Source: Clostridia bacterium
GTDB lineage: Bacteria > Bacillota > Clostridia > TANB77 > CAG-508
Length of the DNA stretch: 64,000 nt
Reading direction: 5' to 3'
Assembly (NCBI GenBank): GCA_022797145.1
Contig: JAAWKA010000003.1
Coordinates: forward strand, 26,164 to 90,163
Translations under genes and position numbers: made by a program
Notes under the pieces: model-generated
Seen by the model: the letters and a program-made list of their open reading frames with translations, nothing else
What the model was told of the DNA's origin: nothing
Databases searched by the model: none
Shown: piece after piece, positions 33,133 to 53,034 of the stretch
How the letters are laid out: every line of letters begins with the position of its first letter
Numbering within the stretch: position 1 is the stretch's first letter

Positions 33133-34890
33133 CTAATTTTCCTCATACTCGAAATGATGAGTAAGGCCATTTTTTAATGTAATATGATGGATTTTTTTAT
33201 GATCTACTGATATTTCACTTATAATAGTAGATAAGAAATCTTTGATAACAGACTTATCAACATTTTCTAATAAATGTCTAACATCTATATTTTTCTTAGT
33301 ATTTATATGTTTAGTAAGTAAAAAGAAGCTAGATTTTAATATAAAAGAAAAATCATTATTATTCATATATTGTTTTTCTTCTTTTTTTGTATTATTGATT
33401 TTAGCATTTATAGCTTCTATACTGTCAGAGATTTCTTTTCTTTTTATAATAAAATCCTTTTGTGGCATACTATCTTGTGAATACAGATATAAGTCATCTA
33501 ACCTTTTTAATGCATTTTCTAGCTTTTCTTTTTCTAAAGTATATATTTTTTCTTTGTCTGTAATACTTTCTATTTTATTTTCTTTTTTGTTCTTTAATTT
33601 GTATGAATCTGTTTTGGTACTTTGTAACAACAATGTATATGTTTTCTTAATATCTTCCATATTTATATTTTGAATATCAGAAAAATAAGGTCCTCTTAAC
33701 AAAATGCTTTTCATATCCCTATATGAATGATTTGAGGTGATTTTATTGCTTAAAGTAATATAATTGGATATATAATTTATCAAGAATGATAATATGTTTA
33801 AATCGCTTGCATAGTTATTGCATTTAATTGCATTTCTGTATATATAGCAAGTATAACGAGAGGGAGTAAAGCCATTGCTACGAGTTCTATCATTTCCTGC
33901 AATCATTTTATTTCCACAAGTACTACATCTAATGATTCCAGATAATATATGAGTTTCTGTATTTTCTTTTTGTCTGTTATAATCACCTTTATAATTATTT
34001 TTTAATATATCTTGTATTTTATCAAATTGTTCTTTAGCAATTATAGCCATGTGGTTATTTTCAATAACAATCCATTCCTTTTTATCTTTCCATCTTCTAG
34101 TTTTCTGTGTTTTTGTATTATATCTATAAGTACCAATATAAAATGGATTCGAAAGAATTGCACCCACAGTTCTTGCTGTCCAAGTAGCATTACGCTTAGT
34201 CGGTATGTTCTCAGCATTCAATTTTTGTGCTACTTTAGTTGTAGAACGCAGTTCCTCATATAAATCATAAGTATACTGTACTATTTTAGTTTCAGGCTCA
34301 TAAGGCTTTGGAAATCTAGTCTCTTCATCCCATTCATAACCAAAAGGAACTGTCGCACCATTCCATAATCCTTTTTCTGCTCTTGACATCATAACAGCAA
34401 AGACTCTTTCTGCAGTTAATTTTCTTTCTAATTCTGCGAATACAAGTATTATTTTTAGCATTGCTTCCCCCATAGCTGTTGATGTATCAAATTGCTCATT
34501 TTTAGATATGAATGTTACATTATAATGTTTTAGTTCATCATACATTTCAGAGAAGTCTCGTAAATTTCTACTGATACGATCAATTTTCCACACTAATAGA
34601 TGTGTAAATTCTCCAACTCTAATTCTAGACATCATTTTTTGGTAATCTGGTCTATCTGTATTTTTAGCAGAATATCCTGCATCTTCAAATATAACAAAAT
34701 CATTTGTATTCAATACATATTTACAATAGTTTATTAAATCTTTTCGCTGCAAGGGAAGAGAATCCTTATCTATTTGATGGGATGTAGATACCCTTATATA
34801 TATTGCTACCTTAATATTTAGTACATTCCTTATATCATACAATTTATTTGATTTTTCCAATAAAAAAACCTCCATTTTCTTATATTTCAC
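33133..34890 (-). CDS. large serine recombinase (prophage integrase)
   Basis: N-terminal resolvase domain (VAIYIRVSTSHQIDKDSLPLQ), recombinase domain and Cys cluster, 585 aa. Confidence 0.85.
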   Translation of the reverse strand: MKYKKMEVFLLEKSNKLYDIRNVLNIKVAIYIRVSTSHQIDKDSLPLQRKDLINYCKYVLNTNDFVIFEDAGYSAKNTDRPDYQKMMSRIRVGEFTHLLVWKIDRISRNLRDFSEMYDELKHYNVTFISKNEQFDTSTAMGEAMLKIILVFAELERKLTAERVFAVMMSRAEKGLWNGATVPFGYEWDEETRFPKPYEPETKIVQYTYDLYEELRSTTKVAQKLNAENIPTKRNATWTARTVGAILSNPFYIGTYRYNTKTQKTRRWKDKKEWIVIENNHMAIIAKEQFDKIQDILKNNYKGDYNRQKENTETHILSGIIRCSTCGNKMIAGNDRTRSNGFTPSRYTCYIYRNAIKCNNYASDLNILSFLINYISNYITLSNKITSNHSYRDMKSILLRGPYFSDIQNINMEDIKKTYTLLLQSTKTDSYKLKNKKENKIESITDKEKIYTLEKEKLENALKRLDDLYLYSQDSMPQKDFIIKRKEISDSIEAINAKINNTKKEEKQYMNNNDFSFILKSSFFLLTKHINTKKNIDVRHLLENVDKSVIKDFLSTIISEISVDHKKIHHITLKNGLTHHFEYEEN

Positions 34891-34999
34891 TTGAAAAATG
34901 AAGAACTTTCATATATAATATAAAGGTAGTCATTTCTCGTAAGTGATTGCGTGTTCTGATAATGTGTGGTGTCTGCAAAAACAATACACATTATCTTTT

Positions 35000-35560
35000 T
35001 TACAAATTTATAGTTGTAGATGTTGTATTTTGATTATTTTTTTTAAATTCTTTTATAAATTTATTTGCAATAAATACACTAGAACAATGAAAAGCAATAT
35101 ATTTAATTTCATTATTATCTAAATAACTGAATATCAAATAATTGTTTATAATTCTAGATGTTTTTTCTTTTGTTCTTCCTCCAATCATTGCACCAAGTGG
35201 ACCAAATAAAACAGCACCACCAATTGTACCACCAACACTTGATGAATAACTTTTTTGTATATCTATATTACTAGTTATAGATATATCAGTTACTTTGTTT
35301 TTTTCTAATTTAAAAGATGTATTGTTTGCCCAAAATTCATATTCATTTGGACAAGAGAAAATTTGAGTTAATGTATTTTCTGCAATAGAAAGTCCATTAA
35401 AATGATTTAATGCCATAAACAAAGAAGCTTGATGTTGATTTTTTAAATTTTCAATTTTTTTTAATTTTTTGTTATGAGAATCTATACAAGCACAGATTCC
35501 AATAAGTAAGATTAACCCAATAATTCCTAAAAGTGGTTCCATATTTTTCTCCTTTATCAT
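35000..35560 (-). CDS. lipoprotein/membrane protein with a glycine-zipper C-terminus (moron, possibly exclusion function)
   Basis: Signal peptide with a lipobox-like LIGICAC and the motif GGTIGGAVLFGPLGAMIGG. Confidence 0.4.
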   Translation of the reverse strand: MIKEKNMEPLLGIIGLILLIGICACIDSHNKKLKKIENLKNQHQASLFMALNHFNGLSIAENTLTQIFSCPNEYEFWANNTSFKLEKNKVTDISITSNIDIQKSYSSSVGGTIGGAVLFGPLGAMIGGRTKEKTSRIINNYLIFSYLDNNEIKYIAFHCSSVFIANKFIKEFKKNNQNTTSTTINL

Positions 35561-35569
35561 ATAATATAT

Positions 35570-36463
35570 TTATTTAAAAGCACTTGTATTTTCAGCTCTT
35601 ATAACTCTTCCTAGAAATTTTATATCATTAACAATAAATTTTTCCGTTTTTGCATTTAAGTATGAAAGTTCAATAATATTATCATACTTGAATAATTTAC
35701 CAATTATACATTTTTCTCTAGTAGTAGAATAAGTAGCAACAATTTGCCCATTTACAAATTCAGTTTCTTTATGAATTATAGCAATATCATTTATATCAAG
35801 TAAAAATGCCATACTGTCATTATCAATTAATAGTGCAAAATAATCTTCAGCTGACTGTGAAGAAGGTATATTAAAATTGACATAATCGACAATATCAGAT
35901 ACTAAAAACAAGTCTATATTTTTGGTATTCTTGTAAACTGGGACAGGATATAAGTAGCCATTTTTGTGTAGATTAATTAATGCTTTACTAATTTCATCAT
36001 TTATATTTATTAAAGTAGCAAATAGTTCTTTAGCATTTGAAGAATTACTTATTGCAAAATTATTTAATTGACTTGTTATAGGGGAATTATGTTCATTTCT
36101 TTCCATTAGAATCTTTTTTAAATCTAAAATATTACTATTAGATAAATCATATTTGCTAAGTAGGCTAATGTGATTATTAAATATTGATTCAGATAATTGC
36201 ATATCTAAAGATTGAAAATTAATATTTATATTATTTGGAATATATCCACATATCTGCATTAGTTCATTATAAGTAGTAAGTCCTTTACTTCCTTCTGCTA
36301 TTTTTTGCAATATTTTAGGAGAGGGGGGATTTTTTAATTCTTTTCTAACATATTTAGAAATAGAAGTACGATTAAATCCAGAAACATTGGAAAAATCTCT
36401 TAAACTTTCATATTTAGATATTATTGAATTTAATATGCTTGAAAAAATTTGTTGATTAAACAT
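35570..36463 (-). CDS. CI-like phage repressor (XRE HTH + S24 LexA-like peptidase domain)
   Basis: N-terminal HTH, then C-terminal IDNDSMAFLLDINDIAIIHKE..NGQIVA..IIGKL (Ser/Lys dyad pattern). It is divergent from cro. Confidence 0.65.
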   Translation of the reverse strand: MFNQQIFSSILNSIISKYESLRDFSNVSGFNRTSISKYVRKELKNPPSPKILQKIAEGSKGLTTYNELMQICGYIPNNININFQSLDMQLSESIFNNHISLLSKYDLSNSNILDLKKILMERNEHNSPITSQLNNFAISNSSNAKELFATLININDEISKALINLHKNGYLYPVPVYKNTKNIDLFLVSDIVDYVNFNIPSSQSAEDYFALLIDNDSMAFLLDINDIAIIHKETEFVNGQIVATYSTTREKCIIGKLFKYDNIIELSYLNAKTEKFIVNDIKFLGRVIRAENTSAFK

Positions 36464-47648: not shown

Positions 47649-50319
47649 TATGGAAAATAAAGATTATGAACAACTTTATTATGATGAAGTATATGAAAAC
47701 AGAAAACTAAAAAACAGAATAACAGAGTTAGAAAACGAAATCCAGGATCTAAATATCTGCAGAACAAAGAAAAATATTGATTTACAAAAATATATTATAC
47801 TGCAGATGGGAAGGAGGGACAATGGCAAAACCAGTTCAAAGAAAAAGATATAAAAATAAACAAAATATAACTTGCGAATTATTCGAACATTGTATGTATG
47901 TAGAACATGGAGACATGTATTGCGATGAGCATGAGAATTTTGCAGATGGTTATGATGAATTTTGTCCAACTGAAAACTATATGTGGTGTAATGGAAAAAA
48001 ATTTATAGAAAGGTAGAGAAACAAATGAAAACAAAGTATTATGATAAGGAAATGTATGCCAGAAATGAAAGTATAAAAGGTGCATTGGTAGTATTATTGT
48101 CTTTTATACTAGGATTTGCAAGCGGATGTATTGCAATAAATAAGGAATTAGCAAAACAAAACAATGAAAAACAAAAGTATATTACTACTTTAGAACAACA
48201 AGTGGAAGAACAGAAAATAACGATAAGGGACCAGTATATTGAATTAGATTCGTTAAGAGAAACTGTATATATGTATGCATATATGGAAAGTAGGTATTAC
48301 TAATGATTAAGTTTATATTAGGGTTGTTATTAGGTACATTTTTAGGAATAGGACTAATGTGTTTACTTCAAGTAGCAAAGGAGGATAAAGAATAATGCCA
48401 TCATTAGAAATAAAAGGAAAAAAGACGGGGATTATATTTAGTTTTAGAGGTAAAGGACAACTTCCACTATTTATGATAATAAAAGAGTATTTTGATGAAA
48501 ATGGCGAGGTTGACTTTGCAAAAGTATTATTTGAAATTGAAGGAAGAAAATGAAAATGAAAATGATAATTGATTTTTTTACAGGAAAAGAAATAAAAGAT
48601 GATAGTAAATGTAATAATTGCAAATATAATCAGGGGTATAAAACAAACAATCCTAGCATTATATGCTGTGATAAACATATAACATATAAACAAGAAAATT
48701 ATGAATGTTCTGATTATAAATTTAGATGTGAAGGAGGTACGAAAGAATGAAATGTACCGATAAAGAATGGCAACATTGCCGAGTAGAAAAAATGGGATGT
48801 CCTGGATGCTATTATGATGAAATAGAAATACAGGAGTATATAAGGAATAAAGATGGATACATTGGACAAGTAATGAAAGTTATTAATGCTGATGAAAAGA
48901 TGAGAGAAAAATATTATTGTTGTGAAACTACAATGGCAAGCGCACATAGGAGCCAAATAATTAAACATAGCAAAAATATATTAGATTTAATTGAAATAGG
49001 AGATATATTAGAAATCAAAGAAGGTAATGACATTTGTTATTTAGGACTAGCAAAAGACACAATAACAGTTAATTATAGAGAAATAAAAGAAAGTATAGAA
49101 AATAAAGAATGTGAATTATTATCAATACTAACACACGAGCAATATCAAGAAAATTGTTTTAAGGTAGGTGACTAATATGAGTAAAAACTTATTAGGAAAA
49201 CATGTTATAACATATGATAATCACGAAGGAATAGTTATAAATCAATACAAACCAACAGGAAGAAATCAAGAAAGTGTGCATATACAACAAGTTGACGGGC
49301 AAATATGGTTTTGTCCAATTGATAACATAAAAGAAGAGGTGTAAAGATGAGCATAGAAAGAGATTGTAAAAAAATACATAAAAAAATTAGAAAATTTTAT
49401 GAAAAATACAAAGATAAAAGAAATATTTGTTTTAATTTACAATGCGATAAAGAAAATGACTCTTATGATATATGTTTATACGTAAATTCTAGAATAGAAG
49501 AACTGGAGGTAATGAAAGAAAACATTAAACTTGAAAGAAGGAAAAAATATGCAAATAAAACTGAATGGTAAAATAGAAGATATAAGTGCAATGTTAGTAG
49601 GAGCAGAAAGATATGCACTAGGAAGAAGAACATACATAGTTCAATGGATTTGTGAATTTATAAAAAACAACTTACATTTAATAACTAATAAGGACAAGCA
49701 AGTAATGATTAGAGATATAGAAAATTCAATTAGTTATGGAGATGAATGTGATAAGGAATGCTGGATGCAGTTATTAAAAAAATTAAAAATGGAGGTAAAA
49801 GAAAATGTATAGAATTAAATTAGAAAGAAACCTAGAGGAATTGAAACAATTTGGATATGAGAAAGATATGCAAGGAAATTACTCTAAAAAAGTAATGAAA
49901 GATAGAAATAAAGGATGGACATATTTTGAAACTATTGAAATCAATAAGGATGATAGAATAGTAAAAACAAGATTATATCAAGATTGTGCAGATCAAGAAT
50001 GGGTAGGTTATATAGAGAAAAAAGGTAGATTTATTTATGATTTAGATGCAGCAGGGTTACTTGAAGAAATAAATATAACAAAGGAAAAAGAATTAAGATT
50101 TGAAGCATTTGAGAATTTAAGAAAAGAAAATGAGGAATTAAACCGACGACATAAATTGGATATGAAAACATTACAAGAACAATATACAGCTCAAATAGAT
50201 GGGTTAAAAGATACAATAGTCCATATGAGTGTAGATGTTTTTACAAGTCAAGATAGTTTTATGAATGTATTTAAAAATATTGACAAAAAATTAAATTTAA
50301 TATTAGGAGGAAAGTAAAG

Positions 50320-51108
50320 ATGATAGAAAAAGTAAATCCAGATCATCCAGATAAAATAGCAGATAGAATTGCAGGAGCAATAGTAGATTTAGGATATAAA
50401 TTACAAGAAAATCCTAAAATAGCAGTAGAAGTGCTAATTGGTCATAATAATTGTAAAATAATAATTGAAAGTTCTGTTAAGTATAATGAAACAGATATAT
50501 TTGACATTGTATATAGAATTACTAAAACAAATAATATTGCGGTAGAAGTAATATTAGCGAAGCAAGACGAGTATTTAGCAAATAATCAAAAAGAAAAAAT
50601 AAGGTGTGGAGATAATGGAATATTCAAAGGTGTTCCACTTACTGAAGAAGAAATACAAGCAAGTTATTTAGCACATCAAATTTATAATAAGTATAATAGT
50701 GATGGTAAATACATAATAGATATGCCAAGCAATAAGACAACTATATGTCAAAGTAATGCCAAGACAGAGGAGTTAAAAGCTATATATCCAACAGCAATAA
50801 TAAATCCATTAGGAGAGTGGACAGGAGGATTAAATGTCGATACTGGTGCTACAAATAGAAAGTTAGGTAGTGATATGGGAAAAGGCGTTACAGGTGGAGG
50901 ATTACATGGTAAAGATCTATCAAAAGCTGATGTAAGCATAAATATATATGCATTTTTGAAAGCCCAAGAAACAGGAAAAATAGTAGAATTAAGTTGTGCT
51001 ATTGGAGATGAATTTGTAGATGGAAAGCCATATGAAGAAATAGTAAAGCAAGCTAAAAAATATATACAACTACAAGGAGGATTTGAAAAATTTGCAGAAT
51101 GGAGGTAA
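50320..51108 (+). CDS. compact MetK-like (S-adenosylmethionine synthetase-like) protein, 262 aa
   Basis: DHPDKIADRIAGAIVD (MetK GHPDKxxDQISDAxLD), CGDNGIFKG (GAGDQGLMFG), GGLNVDTGATNRKL (GGPMGDCGLTGRKI) and GGGLHGKDLSKADVS (GGGAFSGKDPSKVDRS). It lacks about 120 aa of the canonical MetK. Confidence 0.5.
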   Translation: MIEKVNPDHPDKIADRIAGAIVDLGYKLQENPKIAVEVLIGHNNCKIIIESSVKYNETDIFDIVYRITKTNNIAVEVILAKQDEYLANNQKEKIRCGDNGIFKGVPLTEEEIQASYLAHQIYNKYNSDGKYIIDMPSNKTTICQSNAKTEELKAIYPTAIINPLGEWTGGLNVDTGATNRKLGSDMGKGVTGGGLHGKDLSKADVSINIYAFLKAQETGKIVELSCAIGDEFVDGKPYEEIVKQAKKYIQLQGGFEKFAEWR

Positions 51109-51672
51109 GTAAAATGCCAAAGAAAAAAGATAATGTGACAGAATCAAGTGAAATTCCTAAAAAAATTGACAATGAAGAAAATCAAATAATAACTAATCAA
51201 AAATTAGGATGGGTTCAAATACTATTATTAATAGGCAAACCTTTATGGGATGCACAAAAGAAAAAATGGAGAGTGTTAAATGGTTATCAATCTATATTGG
51301 GAAATCAAAATAATCAAATGTTCTTTGAAGTTACATTTACAGACACACCACATTGGGAAAACTTTATTGAAAAACAATTATATATAGATATTCAAAAAGA
51401 ACAGGAGACTAATGTAGAGGAGGGAAATAAAGGAAGCAATAAAAAAGGCAAACGAACTAAAACAGAAGATGAAAAATAAACCATATATCCAGGTAAGAAA
51501 AGATAATACAGATAGTTATGGATATATTGCAGCAATAGATACATTAGTAAGAGAATTGAAAATGTATCAAAAATAAAATAGGAAATATTGTAATACATAT
51601 CAAAGATCGTAGAATTATAATTTATTAAGGTTCATAGCATACAATCTACCTAAAAGGAAAGAAGGATTTTGT

Positions 51673-52263
51673 ATGAAAAAAATAGAAATTTCTGAAAGAG
51701 AAAATCAATTACTAGAATTAATAGAGCAACTTGTTACTGATGGAGTTGCTAAGGGAATAAAAAAGGGGATTGAACAAGCAAAAAATGAAGAAAGATTGAG
51801 AGAAAAAATAACATACGATATCAAAATAAAAAATACAAGATTATTATTTAAAAATTATAGAAATTTTGTAAAGGCTTGCAAACAAGCGACTTTTACTGAA
51901 AAGGATTTAGAAACTGCAACAGTAGAAGAAGTGTTAGATAAATTATTCTGTCGATCTTATGATGAGGTAACCGTAGTTCAATCTATATTAGCATCTAAAA
52001 AAAGAACAGAAATTATATTAACACATATAAAAAGAATTATAAAATTTTATTTATATGAAGCGGACCAAAGTAAAAACGAAGAAAAAAAGCGAAAAGCACA
52101 TATTCTAAACGATTTATATGTGGTTGGAGAATATAAACCAAAAATAAATATGATGTCCGAAAAATATCATATAAGTGAGAGGCAAATTAGAAGGGATGCA
52201 AATTCCGCAATTGAAGAAATTGCAGTGCTTATGTTTGGTATAGATGGTATAAGGAAAATGTGA
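51673..52263 (+). CDS. sigma-70 region-4-like late-gene transcriptional regulator (ArpU/RinA-like)
   Basis: C-terminal HTH ISERQIRRDANSAIEEIAVLMFG. It is positioned immediately upstream of the packaging genes. Confidence 0.4.
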   Translation: MKKIEISERENQLLELIEQLVTDGVAKGIKKGIEQAKNEERLREKITYDIKIKNTRLLFKNYRNFVKACKQATFTEKDLETATVEEVLDKLFCRSYDEVTVVQSILASKKRTEIILTHIKRIIKFYLYEADQSKNEEKKRKAHILNDLYVVGEYKPKINMMSEKYHISERQIRRDANSAIEEIAVLMFGIDGIRKM

Positions 52264-52297: not shown

Positions 52298-52326
52298 TTG
52301 ACATGTCAATGTCAATAATTTATAAT
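52298..52326 (+). promoter_or_regulatory. consensus promoter TTGACA-17-TATAAT whose -35 is part of the perfect palindrome TTGACATGTCAA. CTTGTCC direct repeats lie upstream.
   Basis: Read directly from the sequence. Confidence 0.5.
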
Positions 52327-52503
52327 AATAATATCAAAAAATATGTTTAAGAAAAATAAATCCCCTTTTATTTTTTGAAATAATATAGATAAAACGAACT
52401 TGTAAATCGGTTTTTACAGGTTCTTTTTTTATACAAAAGAAGGTATGTTATATGAAATATGATATGTGTATGAGAAGAGAATGTAAAAATTGCTATAAGC
52501 AAA

Positions 52504-53034
52504 TTGAATGTTTTAAGAAAGAAGGAGAGAATGAATCTAAAAAAATTAAAAATAGGGGATTTAAAAATAGAAGCATACAATCCCAGAAAAGAACTAACAG
52601 AAGACAAAGAATATCAAAAGATAAAAAATAGCATTATTGAATTTGGATATGTTATACCGATTATAATTAATTCAGATATGACAGTAATAAGTGGATATCA
52701 GAGACTCAAAGTTCTAAAAGATCTCAAATATGAAGATATAGATTGTATAGTAGTTGAGTTTGACAAAAATAAAGAAAAATTACTAAATATAGCACTTAAC
52801 AAAATATCTGGAGAATGGGATTATCAAAAATTAGAAAATATATTTAATGAACTAGAAAATATCAATATTGATTTATCAATAACTGGATTCGATGATAAAG
52901 AAATAGACAAATTTATAAAAGATACAGAGGAAATAATTACAGAAAATGAAGAGGTCAATATACTGGATTTTAGTGATGAAAAATTCAAATGCCAATGCCC
53001 AAAATGTGGCATCATGTTTGATGTGAACAAGTGA
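52504..53034 (+). CDS. ParB-like nuclease domain protein
   Basis: ParB N-terminal motif (IEAYNPRKELTEDKEYQKIKNSIIEFGY..VISGYQRLKV). Confidence 0.55.
   Translation: MNVLRKKERMNLKKLKIGDLKIEAYNPRKELTEDKEYQKIKNSIIEFGYVIPIIINSDMTVISGYQRLKVLKDLKYEDIDCIVVEFDKNKEKLLNIALNKISGEWDYQKLENIFNELENINIDLSITGFDDKEIDKFIKDTEEIITENEEVNILDFSDEKFKCQCPKCGIMFDVNK

Follow-up and report, generated by a model that had tools for sequence, protein, structure and literature searches.

Viral genes for MetK, the methionine adenosyltransferase (MAT) that makes S-adenosylmethionine (SAM), have been described before. For viral MetK proteins with the same list of motifs as discussed here, it was reported that the ratio of nonsynonymous to synonymous substitution (dN/dS) is below 1, that they are expressed in metatranscriptomes and that metK co-occurs with dcm (Kieft et al. 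2021, bioRxiv 10.1101/2021.01.05.425418). Among Ca. Heliusvirales gut phages, K00789 (metK) is present in 58.9% of genomes and a C5 methylase (dcm) in 67% (PMC11283538), and the MetK of the Streptococcus agalactiae prophage 12/111phiA is truncated by 135 amino acids relative to E. coli MetK (Renard et al., PMC8223999). Phage T3 SAMase, by comparison, cleaves SAM and inhibits MetK, thereby disabling Type I restriction-modification (R-M) and BREX (bioRxiv 10.1101/2023.02.27.530186). Here we examine a compact MetK-like protein of 262 amino acids, referred to as mini-MAT, which is encoded by a prophage in a 64,000-nucleotide stretch of DNA from a Clostridia bacterium (contig JAAWKA010000003.1, positions 26,164 to 90,163), hereafter the window. 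We consider it likely that mini-MAT is an active miniature SAM synthetase that supplies SAM-consuming DNA-modification enzymes of the phage.

Homology, fold and active site

The reading frame is present as the original prediction described it, with all of the MetK motifs quoted there: HPDKIAD at residues 9-15, GDNG at 97-100, DTGATNRK at 174-181 and GGGLHGKDLSKAD at 192-204. The Pfam family S-AdoMet_synt_N (PF00438) is matched with an E value of 1.3e-8 and 35.7 bits, above its gathering score of 33.1. A phmmer search of the PDB with mini-MAT as query reached E 6.4e-9 for a Ureaplasma MAT, and a profile of 36 family sequences reached E 3.8e-17 in the same database, where all 45 significant matches were MATs. 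Identity to canonical MetK is only 18-25%. The scores from Pfam, phmmer, the family profile and Foldseek show that a chance resemblance to MetK is out of the question.

A single-chain AlphaFold2 model computed from the 36-sequence alignment has a mean predicted local distance difference test score (pLDDT) of 95.1 and a predicted template modelling score (pTM) of 0.93, with no segment below a pLDDT of 70. The predicted order of secondary-structure elements corresponds to three beta-alpha-beta-beta-alpha-beta repeats, which is the architecture of MATs. When this model was compared with the PDB using Foldseek, the top 50 matches were all MATs, with E values down to 1.3e-17, and the best query-normalised TM-score (TMq), 0.81, was obtained for the small Ureaplasma MAT 6rkc. 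No meaningful match was found in the BFVD library of viral structures (best E 1e-3, TMq 0.24). The structural comparison suggested in the original prediction has thus yielded a confident model that matches MATs alone, and neither in sequence nor in structure were the best matches anything other than AdoMet synthetases.

The solved MATs found in these searches have 377-430 amino acids, and mini-MAT is smaller than each of them by about one third. According to a mapping based on sequence and topology, the N domain is about 10 amino acids shorter than in E. coli MetK, the central domain, with its shorter hairpin and second helix, about 45, and the C terminus about 55. All three domains are predicted to be kept in trimmed form, with no domain missing. 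The size deficit of about one third noted in the original prediction therefore stands, but the loss of a block that it implied does not, given that the trimming is spread over the three domains.

We assessed conservation in two sets of sequences, one consisting of 45 diverse representatives of clusters at 50% identity and the other of 149 non-identical full-length homologs from viral and genome contigs, which are 62-93% identical to the window protein. In both sets, the conserved positions coincide with the catalytic and substrate-binding residues of MetK. As judged from alignment and family conservation, these positions are, in the N-terminal half of mini-MAT (E. coli MetK counterparts in parentheses), H9-P-D-K12 (H14-P-D-K17), E37 (E42), E50 (E55), Q82 (Q98), D98 of GDNG (D118) and D128-G-K130 (D163-A-K165), and in the C-terminal half, N162-P-x-G-x-W167 with W167 (F230), D174 (D238), R180-K181 (R244-K245), G192-G-G194, K198-D199 (K265-D266), K202 (K269) and D204 (D271). 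Each mapped catalytic position is kept in 148 or 149 of the 149 homologs, and conservation among these homologs reaches 90% or more in 126 columns. We accept K130 as the predicted counterpart of K165: it is invariant and, like K165, is positioned at a helix-to-strand junction (helix-DGK-strand). K139, which takes this place in a BLAST alignment, is not conserved and was rejected.

The gene is under purifying selection, with pairwise dN/dS values of 0.09-0.34 against ten relatives and of 0.17 against the close relative L006. Taken together with the invariant residues, these values have the appearance of a signature left by an enzyme selected for catalysis. The motifs on which the original prediction was built are thus conserved throughout the homologs.

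The same residues bear on the possibility that the MAT fold has been adapted to a different chemistry, employing another nucleotide or amino acid or generating a SAM analogue for the hypermodification of phage DNA. There are invariant deviations from canonical MetK, namely GAGDQG to CGDNG, F230 to W167, and GGGAFSGKD to GGGLHGKD, which is one residue shorter, and some relatives adjoin radical-SAM, DAM-like-phage/GNAT-phage or NTP-transferase genes. By contrast, the methionine and adenine contacts of E. coli MetK (E55, Q98, D238, D163 and an aromatic residue at position 230) are retained, and the dominant neighbours of mini-MAT genes are ordinary SAM-dependent DNA methylases. We regard altered chemistry as very improbable.

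Linkage to SAM-using enzymes and proposed role

In annotated phages carrying a mini-MAT gene, a helicase gene is followed, at some distance, by a regulator, an HNH gene, a small-terminase-like open reading frame (ORF), mini-MAT and one or more DNA methyltransferase genes, with the large terminase gene further downstream. Pfam searches of the neighbouring genes identified fusions of ParB_N with N6_N4_Mtase as well as C5 DNA_methylases. Start and stop codons at mini-MAT loci commonly overlap by 4-18 nucleotides (nt), which suggests co-translation. We counted the linkage using a stricter methyltransferase filter, replacing an earlier figure of 71 of 82 loci that had taken in matches to ParB_N only. 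By this criterion, 67 of 83 IMG/VR loci contain a methyltransferase homolog, which is directly adjacent to mini-MAT in 61; the corresponding figures for genome loci, 41 of 80 and 35, are an undercount because the reference-based search missed the intact C5 methylase of L006 and the N6_N4 methylase of L139. Of the 42 methylases found in those IMG/VR loci that have full flanks, 37 are located within 700 bp of mini-MAT, whereas uniform placement within 6 kb on either side would be expected, by arithmetic, to put only about 12% there.

Where no methylase could be recognised in a locus, Radical_SAM was the most frequent Pfam family among the neighbouring genes (eight ORFs). Members of this family lie directly beside mini-MAT in L091 (4774-6006), L085 (3919-5238) and L066 (5141-5938), all from phages without an adjacent methylase, and contain the cluster motif Y-x-x-C-x-x-x-C-x-Y-C-F. 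This suggests that they constitute an unexplored SAM-dependent, possibly DNA-modifying, partner of mini-MAT. Linkage of mini-MAT to SAM-using enzymes is strong but not universal. In seven loci of the Prevotella/Segatella group (L105, L106, L108, L125, L126, L128 and L130), no methylase was detected by the reference-based search up to 4 kb from mini-MAT, and GMP_synt_C, NAD_synthase and GATase, which are of the GMP-synthase type, are among the commonest Pfam matches in loci without a methylase. The Prevotella-group loci may belong to a different type of element or lie at the edge of a prophage.

In the reading that we prefer, mini-MAT would be expressed from the phage lytic operon during lytic growth, probably form a homodimer, and catalyse the formation of SAM, pyrophosphate and phosphate from ATP and L-methionine. 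An Rfam search of the whole window returned zero families at gathering score, so there is no SAM riboswitch, and phage SAM synthesis would therefore be decoupled from the feedback control of the host. Decoupled synthesis would raise the supply of SAM while many genome copies undergo modification. This SAM would mostly feed the neighbouring ParB_N-N6/N4 and C5 DNA methyltransferases, or radical-SAM enzymes in some relatives, and the methylases could then shield progeny DNA from restriction.

The original prediction had offered two functions for a shortened MetK. The first, a minimal synthetase, fits the complete catalytic set, the MAT fold and the neighbours that use SAM. The second was a subunit that poisons MetK oligomers of the host. 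The active site of MATs is located at the dimer interface. A truncated paralog could thus in principle form mixed dimers with host MetK, lower SAM and disarm Type I R-M and BREX, with an outcome analogous to that of T3 SAMase. Inhibition of MetK by a phage protein has a precedent in T3 SAMase (bioRxiv 10.1101/2023.02.27.530186; PDB 8bb1). However, all residues for ATP, methionine, magnesium and triphosphate chemistry are invariant in the 149 homologs, which would be unexpected for a mere binder, and the adjacent enzymes usually need SAM, so that lowering its level would starve the adjacent methylases. In addition, mini-MAT proteins from prophages in Firmicutes, Bacteroidota and Actinomycetota share 62-70% identity and do not track host MetK, as would be expected of an inhibitor that depends on the interface. 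Because of the invariant catalytic residues, SAM-needing neighbours and this absence of tracking, we consider a poison subunit extremely improbable. The broader suggestion that the phage targets SAM metabolism in order to escape SAM-dependent defences is not borne out either: the invariant catalytic set and the SAM-consuming neighbours argue for making SAM. In the literature, we found no SAM-depleting defence that short phage MATs might counter.

Several observations weigh against a role of mini-MAT as an active SAM synthetase that serves phage methylases. Pfam finds no match to the central domain PF02772, and the C-terminal domain PF02773 remains at 11.8 bits, below its gathering score of 25; it reaches 29.2 bits in a longer family member, P0227. 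For the NCBIfam equivalog model TIGR01034 (metK), mini-MAT scores 42.9 bits where 309.4 are required, and on these sequence criteria mini-MAT is a divergent homolog and, by the curated standard, no equivalog. The absence of about 55 C-terminal and 45 central residues, as mapped, would make stability and oligomerisation less assured. The mapping of the central domain is based on topology and invariance and not on a three-dimensional superposition, and HMMER and MAFFT misplace the DGK segment. As for the neighbours, 6 of the 10 adjacent ORFs examined in loci without a methyltransferase are unrelated to SAM. In the window itself, the only methyltransferase gene, 1.9 kb downstream of mini-MAT, is a C5 pseudogene, and the window protein is without a C-terminal Gly present in 149 of 149 homologs and a Leu present in 99%. 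Finally, the literature searched on short phage MATs yielded neither an enzyme assay nor a structure for any compact member.

Provided that these proteins are active, a more far-reaching proposal can be made, which we advance tentatively and hold to be doubtful as a whole. The family of about 260 amino acids could be the smallest natural SAM synthetase: a dimer-only, feedback-insensitive and portable cassette for cofactor supply, coupled translationally and perhaps physically to the adjacent N6/N4, C5 or radical-SAM enzyme, with SAM then being what limits escape from restriction. Activity would define a minimal catalytic core of an essential and universally conserved enzyme, of use in enzyme engineering and in biocatalysis with SAM analogues, and would imply that self-methylation of phages is limited by the supply of SAM. 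A proper family model would then be justified as well, as Pfam sees only the N domain.

The copy in this prophage

The mini-MAT gene is surrounded by phage genes encoding a serine recombinase, an S24 repressor, RecT, a RusA-like resolvase, HNH, the small and large terminase subunits, an SPP1-type portal and a capsid protein, which confirms the prophage setting that had been proposed for it. The coordinates of the features are listed in the table. The left end of the prophage (33133-36463, minus strand), which comprises the serine recombinase and the S24 (LexA/CI-type) repressor, begins about 2 kb downstream of the host gene sipL. Not even a tRNA was reported by Rfam in the 64 kb, though about 33 kb of them are host chromosome. 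As in related phages, the module of mini-MAT and methylase is located just upstream of the packaging genes. In more distant phages, the slot upstream of mini-MAT is occupied by a Terminase_4-like ORF of about 185 amino acids. The ParB_N domain, which in other phages is fused to N6_N4 DNA methylases beside mini-MAT, is encoded by a separate ORF here.

Features of the window around the mini-MAT gene
Feature	Position	Strand	Remarks
Host SipL (spore-coat gene sipL)	29398-30951		indicates a low-GC spore-forming Clostridia host
Large serine recombinase	33133-34890	-	585-aa ORF, prophage left end
170-aa ORF, function not assigned	49805-50317	+	equal position in L006 and L007
Shine-Dalgarno AGGAGG	50305-50310	+	9 nt ahead of the mini-MAT ATG
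Mini methionine adenosyltransferase gene (viral MetK, phrog_1569)	50320-51108	+	ATG start, TAA stop, 262 aa
Deletion junction	51100-51108	+	about 25-27 nt, relative to close relatives L006 and L007; mini-MAT 3' end
121-aa ORF, function not assigned	51114-51479	+	downstream of mini-MAT
196-aa ORF, phrog_1558 (function not assigned)	51673-52263	+	
Sigma-70 consensus TTGACA-17 nt-TATAAT	52298-52326	+	12 of 12 positions
Terminator-like hairpin with T-run	52396-52423		about 70 nt past the sigma-70 consensus
ParB_N-domain protein (phrog_620 / phrog_498)	52504-53034	+	
C5 cytosine DNA methyltransferase pseudogene	53036-53904	+	compared with intact 348-aa ortholog, L006:8746-9792
Terminase, small subunit	53924-54682	+	
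Terminase, large subunit	54645-56060	+	

The mini-MAT gene is located inside the lytic operon and not at a prophage end. The stop codon of the preceding ORF (50315-50317) leaves a gap of only 3 nt upstream, and the downstream ORF overlaps the gene; this ORF probably starts at the ATG at 51114, not at 51099. A promoter scan returned counts of promoter-like sites near the gene at the expectation from shuffled sequence, and a scan of the window found no terminator-like site flanking it. The mini-MAT gene is thus packed in an operon without a promoter, terminator or riboswitch of its own. A perfect sigma-70 consensus, the only perfect one found, lies outside the mini-MAT gene, and the hairpin that follows it is upstream of the block of ParB_N, methylase and terminase genes. 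Together (52298-52423), these sites may be a regulated late promoter, an attenuator or a small RNA.

This arrangement is relevant to the possibility of lysogenic conversion, in which SAM made from the prophage would benefit the host through methylation, polyamine or autoinducer-2 (AI-2) traits such as aggregation and biofilm formation. In S. agalactiae 12/111phiA, aggregation and biofilm formation were lost when the relB-metK region of the prophage was deleted, and flocculation and long chains returned in part when metK was supplied on a plasmid (PMC8223999); these deletion and complementation phenotypes speak for such a role. By contrast, the operon position with its tight spacing on both sides, the lack of a promoter or terminator above shuffle expectation, and the tight linkage to DNA methylases point to a phage-centred role. 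A conversion role is possible in some prophages; operon position in this window does not favour it, and as a general explanation we consider it improbable.

Two lesions affect the module in this prophage. By comparison with L006 and L007, the deletion at the 3' end of mini-MAT converts the family terminus ...AEWGL(x) into ...AEWR-stop and removes the intergenic spacer. This altered C terminus is the only departure of the window protein from the 126+ strongly conserved columns. In the C5 methyltransferase gene, a frame-shifting deletion relative to the L006 ortholog removes the catalytic PPC motif, an in-frame stop interrupts QKRER, and FSCGGGS of motif I is replaced by FSYGVGS. The identical 262-amino-acid protein, accompanied by the same methylase fragments, was found in at least 6 independent samples, on 19 contigs in all. 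Both lesions are thus genuine, as the same variant recurs in independent samples. The module of mini-MAT and methylase appears to be decaying in this prophage lineage, and because the partner methylase is dead and two invariant C-terminal residues are lost, the activity of this copy is less certain than that of the family.

Partial loss of function in this lineage, with mini-MAT turning into a pseudogene within an otherwise functional family, would be in line with the missing Gly and Leu and with the inactivated C5 gene, which has no second methylase in the window to take its place. The reading frame is, however, otherwise intact and matches all 126 other strongly conserved columns, the dN/dS value against L006 is low as given above, and the variant persists across the independent samples. 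We therefore treat a decaying remnant as possible, if rather unlikely, and retain an active SAM synthetase as the preferred interpretation.

Distribution and comparison with described systems

The original prediction could not place mini-MAT in a described family. Residues 1-252 match the profile of phrog_1569 with E 6.6e-65 and 220.8 bits, and the protein belongs to the published class of viral metK auxiliary genes. PHROGs labels phrog_1569 as of unknown function, and most GenBank records are named hypothetical. In a database clustered at 90% identity, at least 8000 scored matches were obtained; the top 120 are nearly all 264 amino acids in length, and some are named S-adenosylmethionine synthetase by their source. 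An exhaustive search of representatives at 50% identity retrieved 1193 clusters at E<=1e-3, of which 185 also satisfied E<=1e-30. Homologs are abundant in phage genomes, where the original prediction had proposed to look for them: at least 580 IMG/VR stretches encode a relative, and 24 GenBank phages carry 60-67% identical proteins, including Streptococcus Javan prophages as well as the "NatCom" gut phages, the latter assigned to Ca. Heliusvirales. Relatives are encoded in at least 545 species-representative genomes, among them Clostridia, Bacilli, Erysipelotrichaceae, Prevotella/Segatella and Gardnerella. Homologs with 64-69% identity also occur on short contigs binned to metagenome-assembled genomes of Methanobrevibacter, Treponema and Saccharibacteria (L117, L097 and L155); most probably, these are phage contigs placed in the wrong bin and do not indicate true hosts.

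One representative at 50% identity, P0123 (582 amino acids), has an insert of 316 amino acids exactly within the catalytic GGGLHGKD loop, between GGGLH and GKD. The insert begins with CLSGD, contains TPYH and ends in ITGN followed by Cys, boundaries that resemble those of inteins. Pfam and PDB sequence searches recognised no intein or homing endonuclease in it.

Viral metK is counted as an auxiliary metabolic gene in many virome surveys. The window gene is one more copy of this already known and extremely common gene, its truncation is already in print, and the biological significance of this single, slightly damaged copy is small.

The three systems named at the outset differ in their relation to mini-MAT. 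T3 SAM lyase shares with it the intervention of a phage in host SAM metabolism, but the direction is opposite, as the lyase destroys SAM and mini-MAT has the machinery for making it. No similarity to SAM lyase in sequence or fold was found for mini-MAT in Pfam, PHROGs, NCBIfam or the PDB, and its sole match in 8bb1 is the MetK chain. Canonical MetK (E. coli 1FUG/7LL3; Ureaplasma 6RJS/6RKC) has the three-repeat fold and the catalytic and substrate-binding residues in common with mini-MAT, and at the site of its gating loop mini-MAT has a flexible loop after Q82, where pLDDT dips to 86-87. In contrast to canonical MetK, mini-MAT has 262 instead of 377-430 amino acids, is phage-borne without a SAM riboswitch, and exhibits invariant features of its own family, namely CGDNG, W167, GGGLHGKD and the C-terminal GGFEKFAEWGL. 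Closest is the viral metK auxiliary gene, that is, phrog_1569: mini-MAT shares 61-67% identity with its counterparts in Heliusvirales NatCom phages and in Streptococcus Javan prophages, and its family agrees with what has been reported in motif set, purifying selection and association with dcm-type methylases. The differences from this class are details of the lineage only, consisting of a partner methylase reduced to a pseudogene, a C terminus shortened by a deletion, and a low-GC spore-forming Clostridia host.

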